From Myxococcota bacterium (GTDB lineage: Bacteria; Myxococcota_A; UBA9160; SZUA-336), in the NCBI GenBank assembly GCA_965247115.1, contig CBDFGR010000002.1:864001-928000 (forward strand): a DNA stretch of 64,000 nt, written 5' to 3'. The notes below the pieces were generated by a model, which did no database searches, was not told the DNA's origin, and saw only the letters and a list, made by a program, of their open reading frames with translations. Shown here piece after piece: positions 18,515 through 38,582 of this stretch. Each line of letters opens with the position of its first letter. Positions within the stretch are counted from its first letter, which is position 1. A program made the position numbers and the translations under genes.

Positions 18515-19738
18515 TCACCTCATGCTGTCCATGTACGCGCGGATGATGCCCGCGTCGGGGGCATCCTCCGCGAAGCTCAGGTACTGCTCGAACGCGCTCA
18601 TGGCCTCAGCGTTGGCGTGCTGTCTACGATGGGCCATCCCGAGCTCCTTGTAGGCGGGCGCGAAGCCGGAGTCCTTCTCCAGCGCTTTCCGGTAGCGATC
18701 CATACGCGGGGAATAGTCGGGTCCGTCGAGCGCCTCCTTGCGATAGGTCTCCCCGATCAGGAACTCGGCCTCCGGATCCTCCGGCCTCACCGAGATGTAC
18801 TTCGTCAGGGCCGCACGGGCCCGGGCATACTGCTGCTCCTGGATGTCGAGCCGAGCGTTGATGAGCAAGGCGGGCGCGATGCCCCGATAGTAGGACTCCG
18901 ACGCTGGAACCACTCCTGGCTTGTACGCCTGCTTGCTCCTCTTGCGCTCTCTCTTGATCTCTTTCTGGAGGTTCTTGATCCGGTCGTCCAGCTTCGGGTG
19001 GCTGCTCCAGAGCCGGGCTGGATCGGCCACGCCGTAGAACGAGTTGTCGCCAAGGGCCTGGAACCCGAGCAGCGCCTGGTCCCGGGAGTAGTTCGCCTTC
19101 GCCATCAGGACAAGGCCCTCCTCATCGGCCACGTACTCGAGCTTCCGCGAGTAGCCGTTCGTCACGAGGCCCGACCAGAGACCCTCGGTCGAGCCGATCA
19201 GATCGGTATCGATCACGCCCGTCTGCGAGGCCACGGCAACGGTCGCCAAGAGGCCGATCCCCTTGCCGATGATTGATTGCCGTCCCTCGGTGATGAGCTC
19301 GCGGTAGGAGTGACGCTGGAGAAAGTGGGAGATCTCGTGGGCCAGGATCGCGCCGAGCTGAGCCTCGTTTTCCATGCCGGCGAGGAGGCCGGTGTGAACG
19401 GCGATGGTCCCGTACGGGTAGACCCATCCGCCCAGCGTGGGCTCCCTGACCAGGATGAAGTCGAGGTGCATGCCGAGATGATCCAGGCTGGAGCCGAGCA
19501 TCCTGTCCGTGATGGACTCGAGATACGCCTCGACGTGCCGATTGTGGACCATCCTTCCACTGTTGCGCAGGTCATTCTCGTGTCGGCCGGCGATGTCCCA
19601 GAGCTCTGCTTCGTCCGCCTTCGCCGGCAGCTCCTCGAGCTCGGACACCGGATCCACCCTCGCCGCATTCGCCGCCGGCGAGAGAAAGCTGAGCAGAAGA
19701 GCTGCGATCGAAGACAGTCGAACTGCGCCGTTCATCAC
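18515..19738 (-). CDS. M48 family metallopeptidase with C-terminal TPR repeats (BepA/YfgC-like)
   Basis: Signal peptide, EAQLGAILAHEISH, YSRKLEYVAD, SSHPKLDDRI, TPR-like helices. Confidence 0.9.
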   Translation of the reverse strand: MMNGAVRLSSIAALLLSFLSPAANAARVDPVSELEELPAKADEAELWDIAGRHENDLRNSGRMVHNRHVEAYLESITDRMLGSSLDHLGMHLDFILVREPTLGGWVYPYGTIAVHTGLLAGMENEAQLGAILAHEISHFLQRHSYRELITEGRQSIIGKGIGLLATVAVASQTGVIDTDLIGSTEGLWSGLVTNGYSRKLEYVADEEGLVLMAKANYSRDQALLGFQALGDNSFYGVADPARLWSSHPKLDDRIKNLQKEIKRERKRSKQAYKPGVVPASESYYRGIAPALLINARLDIQEQQYARARAALTKYISVRPEDPEAEFLIGETYRKEALDGPDYSPRMDRYRKALEKDSGFAPAYKELGMAHRRQHANAEAMSAFEQYLSFAEDAPDAGIIRAYMDSMR

Positions 19739-22053
19739 TTGATCCTCACCGGGTACACCGCGCGCTTCACGGTGCCATTCTTGTGTTCCACGTTGACCAC
19801 GAGCTGCCAGAGCTCGCTGCCGCTGAACTCTCTAAGGGAAATACTTCCCAGAGTGCCGTCGCGGACGGGAAACTTCAGCTTCCGTCCCACGGACTTCCAT
19901 CCAGCGGGGTTCTCTCCCGCGCCGATCTGCAGCCAGGCGCGCTTGAATATCTCCGCGTCCGCCGTTCCGCTGATCCGCAGCCTGCTCCCGCCGCCTTCCA
20001 CCTGGACGGACTGAACGCGATCGATCGCAGCGGTCACGAAGAACTCAGGATCCACGCTCAGCGCCGTCCGGGCATCCAGCATTCCGAAGCCCGCGTACTT
20101 GTCCTTGCCCGGAAACTCGATGTCTTCCGCCGTCTGGTACAGGATGCGCTCGACATCGCCTACAGTCAGCTCCGGGCTCCTCGCCAGAAGCAGTGACGCG
20201 GTGCCGGTCACGATCGGGGTCGAGAACGATGTCCCGCTGACGTGCAGATAGCGCTTGTCCTCACCGACGTAGTTCGTACCGATCTCGTACTCTTCCGTAC
20301 CCCGGTAGTTCGCATCGGTGTAGCGCGCCCTGAGGCTCAGGACGTCCACGCCAGGAGCCACCAGGTCCACGCGGTCGCCGAAGTTCGAGAAAGCGGCCGC
20401 GCGGTCGTCGGTGTGCGTCGCGCCGACGGTCAGGACGTGCTCGGCGCCAGCGGGGCCGTAGTCTTCCAGCTCGATGCCCTCGTTCCCGGATGCGACGACG
20501 ACCAGCACCCCCTTCTCGTGGGCGTAGTCAAGTGCCGCCTGCTCGATCCGGCTCGTGTGCGGCCCTCCAACGCTGATATTGATGATGCGGGCCCCGTTGT
20601 CCGCCGCGTAGACGATGGCTTCGGCGAGATAGGACGCCCGCGTGGTACCGAAGTTGTTGACCGCTTTCAGCACCATGAGTTTCGCGTGCGGGTTGATGCC
20701 GGCGATACCCGCATCGTTGTTCTGGCTGGCGGCGATGATCCCCCCGACCAAAGTGCCATGACCATCGAAGTCCCAGGGCTTGTTGTGACGACCGAAGAAG
20801 TCCCAGCCGATGATGTCGTCCACAAAGCCGTTGGCGTCGTCGTCGATCCCGTTGTCGGGAATCTCGTCCTCGTTGCGCCAGATGTTCTCGTAGCTGATGT
20901 CGAGGTGATGCCAGTCCAGACCGGTATCGATGACCGCCACCACGACGGGCGCGGCCGTGTCCGGCACCTGATTCCATGCCGAGCTCTCGTCAGCCGTGTA
21001 TCCAACGCGCTTGATGGCCCACTGGTCGTCCATGGGCTGCCCCCAGGAGCCGCCACCATGCCTGCCCGTCCTCTTATAGTTGGGATCCGTCGGAGTCAGC
21101 ACGATCCGACACCAGTCGTTCTCGAAGACGAACTCTGTTACGTAGAGCGTGTTGTAGACGAGACCCAGCTTCAGGTCCTCGAAGTTGAGGGTCGTGAACT
21201 GTCTGTCACCTATGGTGAGCTCGTTCCTGGAGAAACGGCTCAGGGAGTAATGTAGATCGCGCGCCGGCGCCTCGACGGTGATGCTGCCATAGCTGCGACG
21301 GGGCACTGTGAAGTTAAGTGCGTCTGACATCGCATCGGATCCCCCGATGTTCCAAGCGAACCCAGAACGCAGCTGGAACTGCGTATGGCCGTCGTAGCCG
21401 AACGTTCCCCTGATCGGATCTTCGCCCGAACCCTCGTCGGAAGCCTCTGAGTTCGGACCCTGGAAGGAGAAGTCGATGTCGGTGGGCAATACCACGTACT
21501 GCCGCGGGGGAACGTAGAGCTCGAGTTTCGAGGGATCCGGCTCGAGCTGGAGACCGACCCTGGGCGCCAGCTCGAAGCCGCCGTCCCCGTCGTACTGGGC
21601 CTTGGCTCCGAGCATGAGCTCCCCAAATACGTGCGACAAACCGCCATAGTAGAGGTACCCCGGGCCCTCGGAGTCCCACAGTGAACCCCGAGACTCCGCT
21701 CCCGAGCGCCCCCACTTCAGCTTGGAATCATAAGAGAGGTGGAAGTCTCCTGACTCGTTCCCGAGGGCGAAGTTCAGCTTGCCGTAGCCACTGACCAACC
21801 AGGTCGCATCATCCAACGGGGCCGGACTGTCCGTCCCCGCACGATTGCAATCGGCGTCTTGCGTTGCCGCGGCGAAAGCAATCTGCCCTAGTGGCCCGCG
21901 AAAGATCCACGAGCCATCCGTCGGCGAGCCCGGATCGGCAAACGATGCGCCCTCCGGTGTGAAGGCCTGGGTCAGGGACGCCGTGAGGAGCATCGAGATC
22001 ACGAGGCTTGCGGTGCCAGATCGCATAAGCGCACTCATCCGACGACCCCTCAT
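19735..22053 (-). CDS. Secreted S8 (subtilisin-like) serine peptidase with long unassigned N-terminal region
   Basis: Triad VIDTG / DGHGT / SGTSFS, NGIDDDANGFVDDIIGWDF loop, signal peptide; start uncertain within about 15 nt. Confidence 0.9.
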   Translation of the reverse strand: MRGRRMSALMRSGTASLVISMLLTASLTQAFTPEGASFADPGSPTDGSWIFRGPLGQIAFAAATQDADCNRAGTDSPAPLDDATWLVSGYGKLNFALGNESGDFHLSYDSKLKWGRSGAESRGSLWDSEGPGYLYYGGLSHVFGELMLGAKAQYDGDGGFELAPRVGLQLEPDPSKLELYVPPRQYVVLPTDIDFSFQGPNSEASDEGSGEDPIRGTFGYDGHTQFQLRSGFAWNIGGSDAMSDALNFTVPRRSYGSITVEAPARDLHYSLSRFSRNELTIGDRQFTTLNFEDLKLGLVYNTLYVTEFVFENDWCRIVLTPTDPNYKRTGRHGGGSWGQPMDDQWAIKRVGYTADESSAWNQVPDTAAPVVVAVIDTGLDWHHLDISYENIWRNEDEIPDNGIDDDANGFVDDIIGWDFFGRHNKPWDFDGHGTLVGGIIAASQNNDAGIAGINPHAKLMVLKAVNNFGTTRASYLAEAIVYAADNGARIINISVGGPHTSRIEQAALDYAHEKGVLVVVASGNEGIELEDYGPAGAEHVLTVGATHTDDRAAAFSNFGDRVDLVAPGVDVLSLRARYTDANYRGTEEYEIGTNYVGEDKRYLHVSGTSFSTPIVTGTASLLLARSPELTVGDVERILYQTAEDIEFPGKDKYAGFGMLDARTALSVDPEFFVTAAIDRVQSVQVEGGGSRLRISGTADAEIFKRAWLQIGAGENPAGWKSVGRKLKFPVRDGTLGSISLREFSGSELWQLVVNVEHKNGTVKRAVYPVRIK

Positions 22054-22212: not shown

Positions 22213-25200
22213 ATGACACTTGAAAAGGTGCCGGCGACGCCGCTGCTGGTGCTGCTGCTCGTATTTGGACTGAGTGCGCCGGGCTGGGCTGGCTTTAGGG
22301 TGAACACGCCCTCACCGATCACGGTCATCACTGGGGAAGAGGTGGAGCGGCTACCTGCTCGACCCATCACAGACTTCATGAGTCTGGTTCCTGGGGTCTC
22401 GAGCGGGACTGCCGGGGAGCCGACACGGTTTCTCGTAAATGGGATTCGTTCCCCCGAATCGGACCGTCTGATACCCAAGGACGATGTCGAGCGCATCGAG
22501 ATACTGAACGGTTCGACGGCGGCCACGTTGTACGGGGGGGAACTCACTGCCGACGTGATCAACTTCGTCACCAAGGACGACTATTCTGGATTCAACGTCG
22601 GTGGATCCTGGGTATTCCAGAACTTAATGAACTCTTTCAAGGATATCTGGATCTCGACGGAGAATGGCGGAGAGTGCGATACCACGAACGGTGAGCTCCG
22701 GTCTACCTTCACTTTGTTCGACCGTTACGACTTTGGAGGGCCCGACTTTGCGAACGGAGGCAACACGTGGCTGTGGGGAAGTCAGTCGCGGGGGTTTGTG
22801 CAAGGTGGGTATGGATACCCGAAACTCGGGCTTTCGTACCCGGACTTGAGAGACACCGAGTCCATGAAAAGGACCGGCTTCTCAGCTCTCGCGGCCCTGA
22901 CTGAGAGTGTAACGGGCGATCCGTCACTTTCTGAAGGAGCCAAGAGTGGCTTCATGGCTGGGCTGTCTATCGTGCTGGCGTACGGGCCGGATTCCCTGTC
23001 GGATCGGGCGCACAGCTTGGGCCACTTTGACCCTGTCGAGATCTACGGGCAGTTGAGCCAGTACTCGGCAAGTGGGGCCACTGGACCCGCGTTCACGCCA
23101 ACTCCGCAAACACAGACCGACGAAGTGGGTGGTGGCGAGCAACTACTGCCCCAACCGTTCGCGGGCTACAGAATACCCTCGAAGTATCTGTTTGAGAATC
23201 CGAATGATTGCCCGGAAGAGGTTGTGGACAGCGTGCGACCGCTGATCCGTGAGTGGGCTCAGGCTCGCGGTGGTATCAGCTACTCCATGGACTATCTGAG
23301 ATATCAGCTGCAGTCCGGCGGAGACACCGGGGAACAGGTGAGGAAGGCGGAAGAGGCACGCAAGCTGCGAGACCAGAAGAACAACGAGATCAACGATGCG
23401 CTGCGCACGTGCGTGCCTCAGACGGCATCAACGGAGGCATCTGCTCCCACAGCGACCTCCGGCGCTGAAGCACAGAGCGGCTCCTGGGGGCGCTGGAGCG
23501 ATGACTTGAAATTGCAGATCTACTTCTCCCGCAATGAACTGGGAGATGATGGGGCGGTCTACAAAGTACCCGCACCGGACGTTCGCGTAGGTCTCCACCC
23601 CTACAACCCTGATCTTGACGTTGGTATCCCGTGGGGCTTCCGGTCGTCCAGGGACACCGACAACGGGGCCAGCGAGGACGGACATAGCAAGATCACCGCG
23701 GCAGATGGAAGCGTCATCTTTGACATGGATTGGTACGATCCGGGCGTCGCTGCGGGCTTCAGAATGCCCACCGACCGGTCGCTGGTGGAATCGTACGAAA
23801 CGGGCGCAAAGTCGAACTGGACGGTGCGCGTGGACTGGGACACCAGCACGATCAAGCTCCGGTCGCACCTGGAGAAGACCGACAGCTTCGTTCAGCTGTT
23901 TGCGGGACAAGCCCAACAGGGCAGCGCCTCCATACAACATGTTCCAACAGGTCTCTTCGCGAATTATCTGTCGAACGAATTTCCTGTGGGCGGAAATCTC
24001 TATCGGGTATATGACAACATCCCGGAGTATCTCAACCTCGATCTGAGTCAATTGTATTCGATATCGGGACAGACGAGTGTCGAGAACAACTCCTGCGGCG
24101 AATCGGCCCTACCGCAGAATGGCCTCGGATACCTCAGCCAAGCAGCCTCGCCCGTCCAGTCGGTCGAGGACCAGTGGGCTCTGGAGCACGTCGGGTTGAC
24201 GGAAGATGCCGCGTTGTCGGAGACGACGTCCAGCGCTGCCGCGCCGATTGTGATCGGTGTCATCGACACCGGACTCGACTGGAACCATCTCGACTTTGCT
24301 TGGGAGAACATCTGGCGGAACGAAGACGAGATTCCCGACAACGGCGTCGACGATGATGGCAATGGCTACGTGGATGACATCATCGGCTGGGATTTCATGA
24401 ACCAGGACAACAAGCCCTGGGACAACGACGGACACGGGACGTTCGTGTCGGGGATCATCGCCGCGACGCACAACAACAGTGCTGGAATCGACGGGATCGA
24501 CCCGAACGCCAGGGTCATGGTGCTCAAGGCACTCAACAATTTCGGCCGTACGCGTGCCTCGTACGTCGCGCAGGCGATTGTGTACGGAGCCGACAACGGG
24601 GCCCACATCCTGAATGTGAGCGTCTCGGGCGGCGAGGTTCCCGGCGTTGTGATCGACGCCCTGGCCTACGCCATAGGCAAGGGCGTACTCGTGATCACAG
24701 CGGCGGGAAACAGGGGTGAGAATATCGACCGTGGCCCGCCGGGCGGGGTGCCAGGTGTCATGTCCGTGGCGGCGACGGGTCCCGACGGCAAGCGCGCGGC
24801 CTTCTCCAACGTCGGATCGTTGATCAACATCGCCGCGCCAGGGGTGGACATCGTGAGTCTTCGGGCTCGCCGCACGGACTTCATGCTGAACAGTGCCACG
24901 ACCACCTACCAGGCTCGCGATGCCTACCTGGGCGATGACAATCGCTACTACCGTTCAGCCGGAACGTCCTTCGCGACTCCTATCGTCAGCGGCATCGCCT
25001 CTCTGGTCTGGTCGAACCGGCCCGAGCTCACGGCGATACAGGTGCAACGGATCCTCGAGCAGTCGGCCCGAGACGTCGGGACGCCGGGCAGAGACCGCTT
25101 CACCGGCTACGGCGTCGTGGATGCACCGGCCGCTCTCGGGGCCGATCCCGAGTTCTTCGTGGAGGCCGCAATTCTCCAGGCCCGACCAGTGGAGGAGGAC

Positions 25201-25458
25201 GAGCAGGTCTTCGTCCAGGTCTTCGGCTCGGCGGATGCCAACCAGTTCGGCCGCGCGTGGCTCGAGATCGGCGAAGGGGAGGATCCATCCCACTGGATCC
25301 CGATAGGGGATGCTCTCCCCGACACGGTCAGGCTGGGAGTGCTCGGCATGATTCCCGCCGCCCAACTAGATGGCGCAAACGTCTGGACGGTCCGCGTGCT
25401 CGTGGAGCACCAAAACAGCCGGCTGCGAGAAGCGAGATACGTAATCGAGCTCGGATGA
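22213..25458 (+). CDS. Secreted S8 serine peptidase with N-terminal TonB-dependent-receptor plug-like domain
   Basis: Triad IDTG / DGHGT / AGTSFA; N-terminal SPITVITGEEVE...LVPGV...LVNG...IPKDDVERIEILNGSTAATLYG...VINFVTK; RBS AAGGAG. Confidence 0.88.
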   Translation: MTLEKVPATPLLVLLLVFGLSAPGWAGFRVNTPSPITVITGEEVERLPARPITDFMSLVPGVSSGTAGEPTRFLVNGIRSPESDRLIPKDDVERIEILNGSTAATLYGGELTADVINFVTKDDYSGFNVGGSWVFQNLMNSFKDIWISTENGGECDTTNGELRSTFTLFDRYDFGGPDFANGGNTWLWGSQSRGFVQGGYGYPKLGLSYPDLRDTESMKRTGFSALAALTESVTGDPSLSEGAKSGFMAGLSIVLAYGPDSLSDRAHSLGHFDPVEIYGQLSQYSASGATGPAFTPTPQTQTDEVGGGEQLLPQPFAGYRIPSKYLFENPNDCPEEVVDSVRPLIREWAQARGGISYSMDYLRYQLQSGGDTGEQVRKAEEARKLRDQKNNEINDALRTCVPQTASTEASAPTATSGAEAQSGSWGRWSDDLKLQIYFSRNELGDDGAVYKVPAPDVRVGLHPYNPDLDVGIPWGFRSSRDTDNGASEDGHSKITAADGSVIFDMDWYDPGVAAGFRMPTDRSLVESYETGAKSNWTVRVDWDTSTIKLRSHLEKTDSFVQLFAGQAQQGSASIQHVPTGLFANYLSNEFPVGGNLYRVYDNIPEYLNLDLSQLYSISGQTSVENNSCGESALPQNGLGYLSQAASPVQSVEDQWALEHVGLTEDAALSETTSSAAAPIVIGVIDTGLDWNHLDFAWENIWRNEDEIPDNGVDDDGNGYVDDIIGWDFMNQDNKPWDNDGHGTFVSGIIAATHNNSAGIDGIDPNARVMVLKALNNFGRTRASYVAQAIVYGADNGAHILNVSVSGGEVPGVVIDALAYAIGKGVLVITAAGNRGENIDRGPPGGVPGVMSVAATGPDGKRAAFSNVGSLINIAAPGVDIVSLRARRTDFMLNSATTTYQARDAYLGDDNRYYRSAGTSFATPIVSGIASLVWSNRPELTAIQVQRILEQSARDVGTPGRDRFTGYGVVDAPAALGADPEFFVEAAILQARPVEEDEQVFVQVFGSADANQFGRAWLEIGEGEDPSHWIPIGDALPDTVRLGVLGMIPAAQLDGANVWTVRVLVEHQNSRLREARYVIELG

Positions 25459-34764: not shown

Positions 34765-36060
34765 GTGATTCCGAGACTGGCAGCTACTGCGCCATTCTAT
34801 GGATGGCGCATCGTCGCCGCCATATTCGTCATGCTCGCCGTCTCTTCAGGGCTCGGCTTCTACAGCATGGCCGTGTTCCTCGAGGCGCTCACGACCCAGC
34901 AGGACTTCTCTGTAAGTGCCGTGTCGGGCGCGACAGCACTGCTGTTTGTCGTTAGCGGGATCAGCGGGGTCTTCATCGCCGGTCTGATCAGACGCTACGA
35001 CCCCCGACTGCCCATTGCAGTAGGAGCCCTGATCGCCTCGATTGCGCTGGTACTCATCGGTCGGGCTCAGGAACTGTGGCAGATCTACGCAGCTTACACA
35101 CTTTTCGGTGTTGGACAAGCGGCGTCGTCGCTGGTGCCAGGAACGACCCTCCTAACCCGCTGGTTCGTCCGCCGGCGCGCGGTCGCGATCTCGCTGGCCT
35201 CCACCGGACTCTCCGTTGGTGGTGTGGTGCTCACGCCGCTGGCGGCTGCCGGGATCCAAGAATACGGCATGGAGGTAACAACGCTCTGGATGGCCATCGC
35301 CTACCTGGTCGGGATCGTTCCCGTGACGGCCGTGGTCCTGCGCCCGTACCCTGCAACGCTGGGTCTGCTTCCCGACGGCGATCGGGCGTCGGGATTGGAG
35401 GAGTCATTCGAATCCTCCGGGACGAGGCTGCGACACGTGCTGTCGTCCCGCTTCTACGTGGCGATGACCGTCGGCTTCGCCTTCGTAATGGCGGCGCAGG
35501 TCGGTGGGATCGCCCATCAGTTCAAGCTCGTCGCTACGCGGGTCGATGCGACCTTCGCCGCCATCGCTGTGTCCGCGCTCGCGGCAACGAGCATCGTCGG
35601 ACGACTCACGGGCGGCTGGCTCGTGACCGTGATCTCCATGCGTGGCTTCACCGTTGCGATGACCCTGCTGCAGGCTGTAGCCCTCGTGATTCTGGGCCTG
35701 AGCCAAACTCCAGCTGCGCTACTCGCTGGCACGCTCGTCCTCGGCGTCACCATGGGCAACCTGCTGATGCTGCAGCCGCTGCTCCTGGCAGAAGCCTTCG
35801 GCGTTCGGGACTACAGCCGCATCTACGCCATCAGCTACCTCGTCTCGACCGTTGGACTCGCGGCCGGCCCCTGGGTCATGGGCCTGCTTCACGACGCTGC
35901 AGGCGGCTACACCGAGGCCTTCCTGATTGGTGGGCTCGTCTCGATCGTGGCGACGGTGTGCTTGCTGGCAGCGGGACCGCTCGCCGCCGCGCGCGGCGCT
36001 GAGTCAGTGCCAGCGGCTCGGCCGGTCGCGCAGGGCATCGGAGCCGAGCACGATACATAG
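34765..36060 (+). CDS. MFS transporter (OFA/MCT-like)
   Basis: FYGWRIV, RWFVRRRAVAI, EAFGVRDYSRI; about 12 TM segments. Confidence 0.9.
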   Translation: MIPRLAATAPFYGWRIVAAIFVMLAVSSGLGFYSMAVFLEALTTQQDFSVSAVSGATALLFVVSGISGVFIAGLIRRYDPRLPIAVGALIASIALVLIGRAQELWQIYAAYTLFGVGQAASSLVPGTTLLTRWFVRRRAVAISLASTGLSVGGVVLTPLAAAGIQEYGMEVTTLWMAIAYLVGIVPVTAVVLRPYPATLGLLPDGDRASGLEESFESSGTRLRHVLSSRFYVAMTVGFAFVMAAQVGGIAHQFKLVATRVDATFAAIAVSALAATSIVGRLTGGWLVTVISMRGFTVAMTLLQAVALVILGLSQTPAALLAGTLVLGVTMGNLLMLQPLLLAEAFGVRDYSRIYAISYLVSTVGLAAGPWVMGLLHDAAGGYTEAFLIGGLVSIVATVCLLAAGPLAAARGAESVPAARPVAQGIGAEHDT

Positions 36061-36888
36061 GGCCTCGAAGCGGTCCCTCGGCACGCCCTGCCACTCGAGA
36101 TCGTCCAGCGACTCCGTGAGTGGGACATCGTCTACGAGCGTCGCGAGGTGCTTGTAGAGGGCGACCTCCTCCCGCATCTCGGCGAGCACACCGGCGAGCC
36201 TGCTCGCGCCGCGTACCTTGACCTCCCACTTCTCCGCGTCGTCCGGAATCGCCTCGACCGAGCCGTAGTGCGAGAGCAGCGCGCTGGCCGTCTTCGCTCC
36301 GAAGCCGGGAAGACCCGGGATCCCGTCTGCATCGTCTCCGACGAGTGCGAGATAGTCGGGCACGCTCTCTGGCGCTACACCGCTGCGCGCGCGCACGCCC
36401 GCCTCGTCGAGCAGCCGCTCACGCACGCGATCCACCTGCACGACCTGCCCCCCCACGACGCACTGACCGAGATCCTTGTCTGGCGTCAGGATGCGAACCT
36501 GTTCGACCTCGTCACGCCAGCGGAGGGCGGCCGTCGCCAGCGCGTCGTCTGCCTCCCAGCGATCCATGGACCAGACGACGATTCCGAGCGCCTCTGCCGC
36601 TTCCTCGACGAGATCGAATTGTGCCCTCAGCGCCGGGTCCACGCCGTCACCCGTCTTGTAGCCTGCAAAGAGCTCATTGCGGAAGGACACGATCGGGTTG
36701 TCGAACGCGATCCCCAGGTGGGTCACGTCTTCTGCGGGATCCTCGAGGAGCCACAGCATGGACAGCGCGAAGCCCAGCGTGGCCTTGACATCCTGGCCGC
36801 CGGGGGAGACGTGCTCGGGCCGCTTCGAGTAGTGAGCGCGAAACAGCTCGTACGTGCCGTCGACCAGGTGCAGACGCGCGCAGCTCAA
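36004..36888 (-). CDS. Stand-alone 5'-3' exonuclease / flap endonuclease (PolI 5' nuclease-like)
   Basis: LVDGTYELFRA, FRNELFAGYK, EADDALA, DKDLGQ, LVGDDADGIPGLPGFGAKTA. Confidence 0.92.
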   Translation of the reverse strand: MSCARLHLVDGTYELFRAHYSKRPEHVSPGGQDVKATLGFALSMLWLLEDPAEDVTHLGIAFDNPIVSFRNELFAGYKTGDGVDPALRAQFDLVEEAAEALGIVVWSMDRWEADDALATAALRWRDEVEQVRILTPDKDLGQCVVGGQVVQVDRVRERLLDEAGVRARSGVAPESVPDYLALVGDDADGIPGLPGFGAKTASALLSHYGSVEAIPDDAEKWEVKVRGASRLAGVLAEMREEVALYKHLATLVDDVPLTESLDDLEWQGVPRDRFEALCIVLGSDALRDRPSRWH

Positions 36889-36959
36889 TGGACCTTGACT
36901 CCCATTCCTGATCGGCTGAGTGCCGAGTATCGCCGGGTCGGACCAGCGGAGCTTCGCCC

Positions 36960-37472
36960 CTACTCTCCTCGGAAATCCGCGTCCGGGACGCTCTTGCGCA
37001 TCAGCTCGCGGATGGTCTGGCGCAGCTCCTCTGGTGTCGGGCGGCCGACGAAGTACCAGCCGTTGAAGATGCGGTCGATGGTCAGGTCCGGGAGCAGCGC
37101 AAAGGTAAAGGGAACCGGGAGGGGACCGTGACGCTTGTCTGTCGTCTCCCGTATCCCGAGCTCGTCTGTCAGGTGCAGCCCTTCGTCACTCAGAAAGGTG
37201 TAACGGGCTCCGAGACCAGCCTTGAAGGCGGCCTGGACTCGTGGGGGGTCGACGGATATGACGGCGATGCGGCAATAGGCGACATCCGTGGCTCGGTGGA
37301 GCTGGACCAGCTCCTGCAGTTGGACCTGTCATTTGGGTCACCAGGGGCCGCGATAGAACGCGAGGATGAGCGGCTGGCCGTTGGCGACCTCTTCGATCGA
37401 CACTTCTCGCTCCCGGTCGTCGACCAGGGTCATGGAGGGGAATTTCTGGCCTACTTCGTAGCGGAGTGGCAT
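36960..37472 (-). CDS. AhpC/TSA-like redoxin, predicted selenoprotein with UxxU motif (Sec45, Sec48), 170 aa
   Basis: AGGAGG plus ATG 37472: MPLRYEVGQKFPSMTLVDD...PLILAFYRGPW-TGA-CCC-AAA-TGA-QVQLQELVQL...IAVISVDP...FLSD...PFTFALLPDLTI...GRPTPEELR...TAG. Thioredoxin-fold features continue in frame after both TGAs. SECIS-like hairpin downstream. Confidence 0.85.
37298..37314 (-). promoter_or_regulatory. Candidate bacterial SECIS hairpin
   Basis: mRNA GGAGCUG-GUC-CAGCUCC, perfect 7-bp stem with GGUC at the apex; loop starts 22 nt after the second UGA and 31 nt after the first. Confidence 0.65.
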
Positions 37473-37621
37473 GGCGCAACCTCCTGCGACGGGAACGGGG
37501 TCATACTAGAACGATCGACGTGCCGGGCATTCGGACATGGTTGGGGTCCTTGGCCCTGAGAGAATGTCTATCTTAGGACTCAAGGTGTGGCCCACGTCAA
37601 GCGGTGCGTGTCCGTGATGCC

Positions 37622-37655
37622 GTCAGCGCTCGGGGAAACGTCCCCGAGCGCCGAC
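37622..37655 (-). terminator. Strong GC-rich stem-loop 3' of the LLM gene (no U tract; terminator/pause or mRNA-stabilising hairpin)
   Basis: GCGCTCGGGGA-AACG-TCCCCGAGCGC, 11-bp perfect stem that extends to 15 bp with one G-U pair on the minus strand; 9 nt after the stop at 37665. Confidence 0.55.
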
Positions 37656-37664
37656 TCCCTGCCT

Positions 37665-38582
37665 CTACGTTTGTCTGGGGTCGTACTGGTCGAGCTGTGG
37701 GGGGATTTCTTTGAGGAAGCGCTGCATGTGGGTTCTGGTTTTTTGGAGGTCGGGGGTGTTTGTGTCGAGGATGAGGTCGGTGGCGCCGGCGTCCTTGTAG
37801 GCGCGGACGGTTTCGGTGATTTCTTTTTGGGTACCGCGGCAGGTGCGGCGGTCTTCTGGGGGGCGGGCGTTGGGGGTGTCGAGGAATTCGAGGACGACGC
37901 GGACGGCGATGGGGAGGTCGTCGGGGCGGTCGGCGTTGCGCAGGGCTTCTCGGAGCTGCTCGGTCTTCGGGGCGAGCTCGGCGGGAGAGAGGCTCAAGGG
38001 GTGCCAGCCGTCGCCAAGGCTGGTGACCCGGCGAAGTGCAGCTCGGCTGTTGCCACCGATCCAGACCGGGGGGTGTGGTTTCTGGGCGGGTTTTGGGGAA
38101 AAGGGCAAGTCGCGGAAGCGATAGCGCTGGCCCTGGAAGTCGGGGGTGCCGCCCGACCAGAGCTCGAGCAGCGCTTGCAGGGTCTCATCGGTGATGGCGC
38201 CGCGGGCCTCGTACGGGACGCCGAGAGCCTGGTACTCGTCGGGGGCTGCGCCGACACCTACTCCCAGCGTGACGCGGCCACGGGAGAGCTGGTCGATAGT
38301 GGCGAGGGTCTTTGCGAGCCTGGCTGGGTGGTGCCAGGGCAGGACGAGGACCGACGTGCCCAGTCGAACGCGGGTCGTGGCGGCGGCGATGATGGAGAGG
38401 ATGGTGAGGGCCTCGTGGTAGGGGCGCTGTCCCAGCCGCTCCGCAACATAGGAGGCGTGAAAGAGGTGCTCGCTCACCCACACGGAGTCGTAGCCCAGCT
38501 GCTCCGCGAGGCGGGCCAGCTCGAGCAGCTCGGCGGGGTCTTCGATGCCCTGGTTGTTCGGTACGCAGAATCCGAAGCGCAT
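37665..38582 (-). CDS. LLM-class (probably F420-dependent) oxidoreductase
   Basis: MRFGFCVP, GYDSVWVSEH, LAKTLATIDQLSRGR, PKPAQKPHPPVWIGG. Confidence 0.92.
   Translation of the reverse strand: MRFGFCVPNNQGIEDPAELLELARLAEQLGYDSVWVSEHLFHASYVAERLGQRPYHEALTILSIIAAATTRVRLGTSVLVLPWHHPARLAKTLATIDQLSRGRVTLGVGVGAAPDEYQALGVPYEARGAITDETLQALLELWSGGTPDFQGQRYRFRDLPFSPKPAQKPHPPVWIGGNSRAALRRVTSLGDGWHPLSLSPAELAPKTEQLREALRNADRPDDLPIAVRVVLEFLDTPNARPPEDRRTCRGTQKEITETVRAYKDAGATDLILDTNTPDLQKTRTHMQRFLKEIPPQLDQYDPRQT

Follow-up and report, generated by a model that had tools for sequence, protein, structure and literature searches.

Reviews of selenoproteins list a Prx-like thiol:disulfide oxidoreductase class that carries PF00578, a UxxC or UxxU motif, and one or two selenocysteine (Sec, U) residues (PMC9312934, PMC13188914). 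Both sources also give UxxU for a metal-binding protein, and PMC13188914 adds FmdB. In GOS, a UxxU variant was placed beside UxxC members in the bacterial family Prx-like 2 (PMC2398784). SelL, which reportedly forms a diselenide, uses one SECIS in vertebrates (PMC3316567, PMC13134290, PMC2397514), and how cells reduce a diselenide of very low potential has been raised as an open question (PMC2397514). The bacterial SECIS model has a stem of 4 to 16 bp, a loop of 3 to 9 nt with an early G, a position 16 to 37 nt after the UGA, and an MFE of −7.5 or lower (PMC13188914); a structural paper on SelB gives a spacing of about 20 nt (PMC4605307). Because bacterial Sec insertion needs a roughly fixed hairpin distance, two UGA codons that lie nine bases apart pose a decoding puzzle.

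Here we describe such a gene, a UxxU redoxin, in a window of 64,000 nucleotides, that is, the whole stretch of DNA that was analyzed (Table 1). With a probability of about 0.8, this is an intact and conserved gene in which both UGA codons are likely read as Sec, the U-P-K-U motif is predicted to form a diselenide, and one SECIS-like hairpin likely serves both codons. A sequence-only reading had regarded UxxU motifs as very rare, with SelL as the characterized example. The two-Sec gene itself is supported by the evidence below, but its rarity was overstated, because reviews and GOS already include bacterial UxxU Prx-like proteins beyond SelL.

Gene, reading frame, and predicted fold

The gene is absent from the table 11 ORF list of the window (at least 90 amino acids) and had been proposed as one missed by ORF calling. 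Each element named in that proposal was seen, including an AGGAGG motif separated by a 7-nt spacer from the ATG and, after codon 48, 122 sense codons leading to TAG at 36962-36960. GGAG-type purine-rich motifs also lie 5' of the start codons of homologues. With TGA read as U, the active site is W-U-P-K-U. The read-through protein matches AhpC-TSA (PF00578) over residues 7 to 129 (E value = 1.6e-18; 67.3 bits against a cutoff of 26), a region spanning both TGA codons, as does the match to PF08534. In its AlphaFold model (pLDDT 92, pTM 0.89), residues 45 to 48 open helix 46-62, which is the CxxC position, and a structure search with this model returned BCP/PrxQ as the best match, followed by AhpE, ResA, and 1-Cys Prx. 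No signal peptide was apparent by eye, a promoter and terminator scan found none, and an Rfam search of 36700-37700 gave two matches, both at chance level.

Table 1. Features of the UxxU redoxin locus in window coordinates
Feature	Position	Strand	Evidence
Shine-Dalgarno-like AGGAGG	37480..37485	−	Sequence; homologues with GGAG-type motifs
AhpC/TSA-fold (Prx-like) redoxin gene, 170 codons including two TGA	36960..37472	−	PF00578 match; AlphaFold model
UGA1, codon 45, predicted Sec at first (nucleophilic) CxxC position	37338..37340	−	TGA in 16/16 clade genes
UGA2, codon 48, predicted Sec at second CxxC position	37329..37331	−	TGA in 14/16, TGC in 2/16 clade genes
H1 (UGA2-CAG, variable loop of 4-6 nt, CUG-xx), weak conserved stem containing UGA2	37315..37331	−	Pair counts; Leu52 codon; shuffles
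H2, bacterial SECIS-like (GGARCU stem, GGUC[C/G] loop)	37298..37314	−	6/6 pairs in 14/14 distinct rows

On the same strand, the redoxin gene is flanked by a 5'-3' exonuclease gene (36004-36888) and a luciferase-like monooxygenase gene (37665-38582), an arrangement that is not kept at homologous loci. No partner gene is conserved across the 16 loci beyond close relatives, and therefore genomic context gives no functional clue. Elsewhere in the window, two divergent subtilase (S8) ORFs (19735-22053, minus strand; 22213-25458, plus strand) have matched regions of the same span (4 to 288 of the model) and possibly represent an inverted duplication; one of them has a TonB plug-domain match at its N terminus.

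Conservation of the TGA pair and the host genome

The clade examined comprises 16 full genes, with same-genome duplicates removed and a partial copy (L039) lacking the motif; nothing concluded here depends on locus L100 of the unpublished genome G521. All 16 genes have TGA at codon 45, whereas 14 have TGA and 2 have TGC at codon 48, and none of the 16 contains a further internal stop. Nucleotide identity to the window gene is 65 to 92%, and its TGA pair recurs in 13 other clade genes, the 14 together spanning Myxococcota-type and Acidobacteriota-related genomes and metagenomes. Over all pairs, pN/pS was 0.41 for codons 2 to 44 and 0.22 for codons 60 to 170, values that show purifying selection on both halves of the gene. 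Both TGA codons are also unchanged in assembled contigs, as distinct from raw reads, of three runs (DNA-type or untyped) from three other studies. A single RNA contig spans only 37383-37543, short of the motif, and is no proof of expression.

A pseudogene, or an error of assembly, might likewise present two nonsense codons in a redoxin frame. Standard ORF calling misses the gene, and the protein database, which holds 293 relatives (some labeled SAR324), would at first sight agree, since none of the 120 matches listed starts before codon 50. Such decay or error is nevertheless at odds with a TGA pair shared by 14 genes across genomes and metagenomes that have no other stops, with the contigs of the three other studies, and with the purifying selection, and we consider it already refuted by these conservation data. 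The two TGA codons are thus neither chance nor an assembly artifact, as had been argued from the improbability of two nonsense mutations landing on both CxxC positions. The selection on the downstream half, the invariance of codon 45 in the clade, and the Cys at that position in the sister family (see below) all agree with the earlier suggestion of a probable two-Sec selenoprotein, and on this comparative basis we consider it very likely that the protein is a genuine UxxU selenoprotein. The database fragments start at or after codon 50 and therefore cannot separate UxxU from UxxC. At a minimum, the locus provides an annotation correction for a family present in databases only as fragments.

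The distribution of the clade is patchy: it was found in 4 of the 401 phylum genomes and in 7 of the 201 class genomes (plus two sister-family matches), and also in some relatives of an Acidobacteriota record. A scan of viral contigs gave three pattern matches and no relative, and chance matches dominated a scan for the pattern TGG-TGA-N6-TGA.

The host genome (5.17 Mb, 98% complete) contains the Sec machinery that the two-Sec proposal presupposes, namely, selA (440 bits), selB (257 bits, over the cutoff), selD, which likewise contains a TGA in frame, and one tRNA-Sec(UCA). Genes for selA were found in 10/10 other clade-bearing genomes searched. One or both UGA codons could instead be read as another residue, either as Cys by a tRNA-Cys with a UCA anticodon, which occurs in some Deltaproteobacteria, or as Trp or Gly by an alternative code. 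The TGC at codon 48 of two clade members would fit such a reading, as would three extra, weak UCA candidates that appear at relaxed ARAGORN stringency (C2:533492, C2:1499535, and 1365028, contig assignment uncertain). However, none of these three is among the Rfam tRNA-Sec matches, the one UCA anticodon among 52 tRNAs at default stringency belongs to the tRNA-Sec, and one selB lies over the cutoff. TGA is otherwise the commonest stop in this genome (944/1804 long-ORF ends), which argues for no alternative code. We consider a non-Sec reading highly improbable.

Other candidate selenoproteins in the host were chosen by motif from a codon-usage screen, which is noisy and served only for this choice, and were then submitted to family scans. 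All 17 motif-picked single-TGA candidates match a Pfam or NCBIfam family on read-through, and at least 15 of the 17 are redox or selenoprotein types (loci L106-L122 and L010), including Prx (TxxU), three Prx-like, three PrdB-like, four UGSC, two DsbA-like, GPx, and AhpD/YciW-like proteins, in addition to SelD. Therefore, the host is selenoprotein-rich. L117 (C3, TGA at 1389615, minus strand) is a DUF411-family gene with T-U-G-C-C at a motif of the metal-binding type and, at +21, a SECIS-like hairpin; the parts of the selenoprotein review table covered here make no mention of DUF411. L122 (C3, TGA at 2010271, minus strand) carries an in-frame TGA in a PQQ-dependent dehydrogenase, at the usual Cys position in W-I-U-P-G, and is possibly an unlisted selenoprotein or a broken gene.

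Hairpins H1 and H2 and the proposed decoding of both UGA codons

The consensus of H2 is GGARCU-GGUC[C/G]-AGYUCC, and its loop begins 20 nt past UGA2 and 29 nt past UGA1. One of the six conserved pairs varies among G-C, G-U, and A-U, and this covariation, confined to one pair, is not beyond that of shuffles (59/500). Folding energy in the window is −10.0 kcal/mol, and the stem alone scores only −6.7 in 4 of the 16 clade genes. With its loop at +20/+29, the window H2 agrees with the consensus SECIS model of PMC13188914. Synonymously invariant codons make up 6 of the 8 conserved codons in 49-58 versus 4 of 114 elsewhere, a difference whose P value overstates its significance, as the sequences are related.

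Paralogues with a single UGA have a hairpin loop at +16 to +24 in 23/23 loci, counting one of the two best hairpins per locus across about six subfamilies that are not independent, and several of them have, at +20, a hairpin nearly identical in sequence to H2. In the host candidates, the loop lies at +16 to +23 in 14/16, at +11 in one, and at +27 in selD, the hairpin of which has a long lower stem. The two UxxC members of the clade, which have UGA1 only, keep H2 at +29 together with a 4-bp H1, and at one UxxC locus (L025) both best hairpins are H2. Therefore, H2 likely acts on UGA1 at this longer spacing, and a single SECIS-like hairpin likely serves both codons. In the decoding that we propose, the SelB/Sec-tRNA complex would bind H2, which would lie at the usual spacing for UGA2 and 9 nt farther for UGA1.

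H1 fills the gap between the two. All 14 distinct rows retain the three core pairs and 5 to 9 of them the outer pairs, with no two-sided compensatory change among these rows. It is weak in the window (−2.5 kcal/mol), and its pairing probability falls below 0.4 in 3 of 15 sequences, where other folds win. The H1 segment exceeds synonymous shuffles in structure in all 15 sequences, ranking at percentiles of 0.03 to 0.19 (median of about 0.09; above 0.1 in 7/15), and this median is below those of all 54 control windows, the best of which has a median of 0.15. The Leu52 codon, which lies outside the H2 stem, is CTG in 15/15 sequences, whereas beyond codons 49-58 there are 14 conserved Leu codons, none of them invariant. 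Furthermore, although codon 53 encodes three different amino acids, its third base is maintained, as are the CAG/CUG pairs. H1 was rejected as a second SECIS for UGA1 because its loop begins too near (+12/13, under the 16-nt minimum) and the loop-opening G is not conserved.

According to work on the mRNA entry site of the ribosome, a stem may remain folded when it begins 6 to 7 nt past the A-site codon. It is conceivable that the two hairpins act as a switch, with the SECIS in register for UGA2 and H1 aligning it for UGA1, in a UxxU motif that arose independently from a one-cysteine CxxD/E motif. With UGA1 in the A site, H1, a short stem that would lie just beyond the ribosome, may form and absorb the slack, and the advancing ribosome would then melt H1, with UGA2 inside it. 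The step at UGA1 is the weaker part of this scheme, and we put forward both the switch and the slack-absorbing role of H1 tentatively, as somewhat doubtful. If true, the switch would explain how bacteria insert two Sec residues three codons apart despite a set SECIS distance.

On the other hand, a helper hairpin may be unneeded for UGA1, because +29 is inside the 16- to 37-nt range and the host selD loop lies at +27. H2 would then serve both Sec codons by tolerance of spacing alone, through a flexible winged-helix hinge of SelB that is said to accommodate different spacings (PMC4605307), and H1 would be a side effect of codon bias and of constraint on the protein. The positions of both codons within the consensus range and the lack of compensatory changes in H1 favor this simpler account; the invariant Leu52 CTG, the constraint at codon 53, and the rank of the H1 segment ahead of every control window are harder to reconcile with it, and we judge its chances to be just short of even.

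The product could also be mostly a one-Sec or a regulated one, in which UGA1 is poorly decoded, most ribosomes terminate at one of the two UGA codons (45 or 48), and full-length protein requires abundant selenium. Recoding twice in succession would be an inefficient process, and UGA1 is outside the usual spacing. Yet both halves of the gene are under purifying selection, the only in-frame ATG, GTG, or TTG past codon 48 is codon 158, leaving no alternative start between the two, and the 44-residue stop product would, from the model, be a mere fragment of the fold. We regard this possibility as unlikely, although it is compatible with the preferred two-Sec reading, from which it differs in degree.

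In the literature searched, which took in a minority of subscription papers, we found no account of a single bacterial SECIS acting on two neighboring UGA codons, and searches on UxxU gave none either. A layout like that of H1 and H2 was sought in another UxxU family, NF041115, for which 0/301 genomes had a match over the cutoff and none of 150 among the matches listed had an internal stop. The compact and widespread gene suits a direct reporter test, for which the UxxC members and the CxxD/E sisters offer natural controls.

Ancestry, predicted function, and relation to known families

Among 150 cluster representatives, 104 cover the motif, comprising 93 with CxxD/E, 2 distant ones with CxxC, and 9 others. 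In the sister-family rows, the codon-45 position is Cys in 41/43 and the codon-48 position is Asp or Glu in 43/43. The relatives with CPK[D/E] to which the sequence-only reading had compared the protein are thus real, and they form the sister group in our tree (88 rows, midpoint root, with 12 bacterial NF040769 SelL-related rows and no authentic animal SelL). Support is 97/93 for the UxxU clade and 100/99 for its union with the CxxD/E family; SelL-related proteins are separate at 100/99, and UxxC paralogues lie further out. When the motif was masked, the two UxxC members grouped with two UxxU members (97/98), which suggests a possible reversion from UxxU to UxxC, but UxxU monophyly is not rejected by an AU test (p = 0.42).

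Because the protein scores below the cutoff of the SelL-related model and groups as sister to the CxxD/E redoxins, its UxxU motif likely arose separately from the SelL-related proteins, in a lineage sister to one-cysteine redoxins. The earlier claim of independence from SelL accordingly stands for bacterial SelL-related proteins, whereas an origin apart from true SelL is an extrapolation, since authentic SelL is not in the tree; a search for authentic long SelL found none, which is weak evidence.

Our best guess is that the UxxU redoxin functions as a cytoplasmic diselenide/diselenol thiol/selenol-disulfide oxidoreductase rather than as a classical peroxiredoxin. By analogy with the diselenide of SelL (PMC13134290, PMC2397514), the oxidized protein would contain a diselenide. 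P121 is invariant in 24/24 clade rows and occupies what we take to be the site of the Prx catalytic Arg or the thioredoxin cis-Pro, suggesting a thioredoxin-type cis-Pro loop. Cys67 was considered as an essential resolving cysteine and rejected because, although invariant in 15 DNA-derived genes, it is kept in only 17/24 clade rows. The UxxU redoxin may be a convenient small model for the cellular reduction of a diselenide.

Among true peroxiredoxins, BCP/PrxQ is the best match in both sequence and fold. The active Cys of BCP falls opposite codon 48, its Thr/Ser falls opposite codon 45, and the PxxxT/SxxC(U) motif of Prx is lacking, as R41 and U45 occupy the P and S/T positions (alignment to 2cx3); the NF006960 score is 34.8 against a cutoff of 140. 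The unnamed sister family of one-cysteine AhpC/TSA redoxins (CPK[D/E]/CPRD) is closer, at about 35 to 50% identity, and shares RG..CP[K/R], D96, P121, and G[W/Y].{2}GRP with the UxxU clade. It differs in having one Cys plus Asp or Glu (93/104 motif-covering representatives) in place of U..U, and the hairpin with the GGUC[C/G] loop is absent in three sister-family genes checked. This sister family (P0135 and others) is widespread, and with the UxxU redoxin as query no NCBIfam or PDB representative specific to this sister family was found; one of its members carries a fused cold-shock domain.

As in SelL, two Sec residues would stand two residues apart in a peroxiredoxin-like fold, the UxxU here being known from DNA. 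Unlike the SelL-related homologues, which carry PF13911 (AhpC-TSA_2) in 120/120 among those listed, the UxxU redoxin has no PF13911 match at an E value of ≤0.1 (the P0282 control scores 47.6 bits). It scores 34.1 bits with NF040769 (SelL-related redox protein) against a cutoff of 120, and the alignment of its profile with the SelL-related profile is confined to about 100 columns at the N terminus, at 22%. Among class relatives (L065-L094), many NF040769 SelL-related genes have one in-frame TGA (RH..UxxC), and their database copies are mostly truncated after it. In one genome (G476; L096 and L101), two UxxC copies have identical scores, as do two selA matches, probably reflecting a duplicated assembly segment. 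GOS Prx-like 2 is a different sequence family, with a TQG-U-AG-U type of context and weak similarity to SelP-N (PMC2398784).

The closest parallel is with the catalogued Prx-like oxidoreductases, which, as far as the review entries describe them, have PF00578, Sec at the CxxC positions with UxxU allowed, and a coding-region SECIS. The UxxU redoxin likewise has PF00578, conserved UGA at the CxxC positions with Cys homologues, SelA/SelB/SelC/SelD in the host, and a SECIS-like hairpin. The reviews give one representative accession for that class, and so may silently include this branch; the strings UPKU, GPWU, PKUQ, and PKUR do not occur in the text-form GOS supplements. In contrast to the catalogued proteins, however, this branch (GPW-U-PK-U, FNGWYFVGRP) is nearest to CxxD/E rather than CxxC redoxins. 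Overall, the kind of protein is already known and the branch at 37472-36960 appears to be a distinct variant of it, and what we infer to be new is the recoding geometry, in which H2 lies at +20/+29 with H1 filling the gap.
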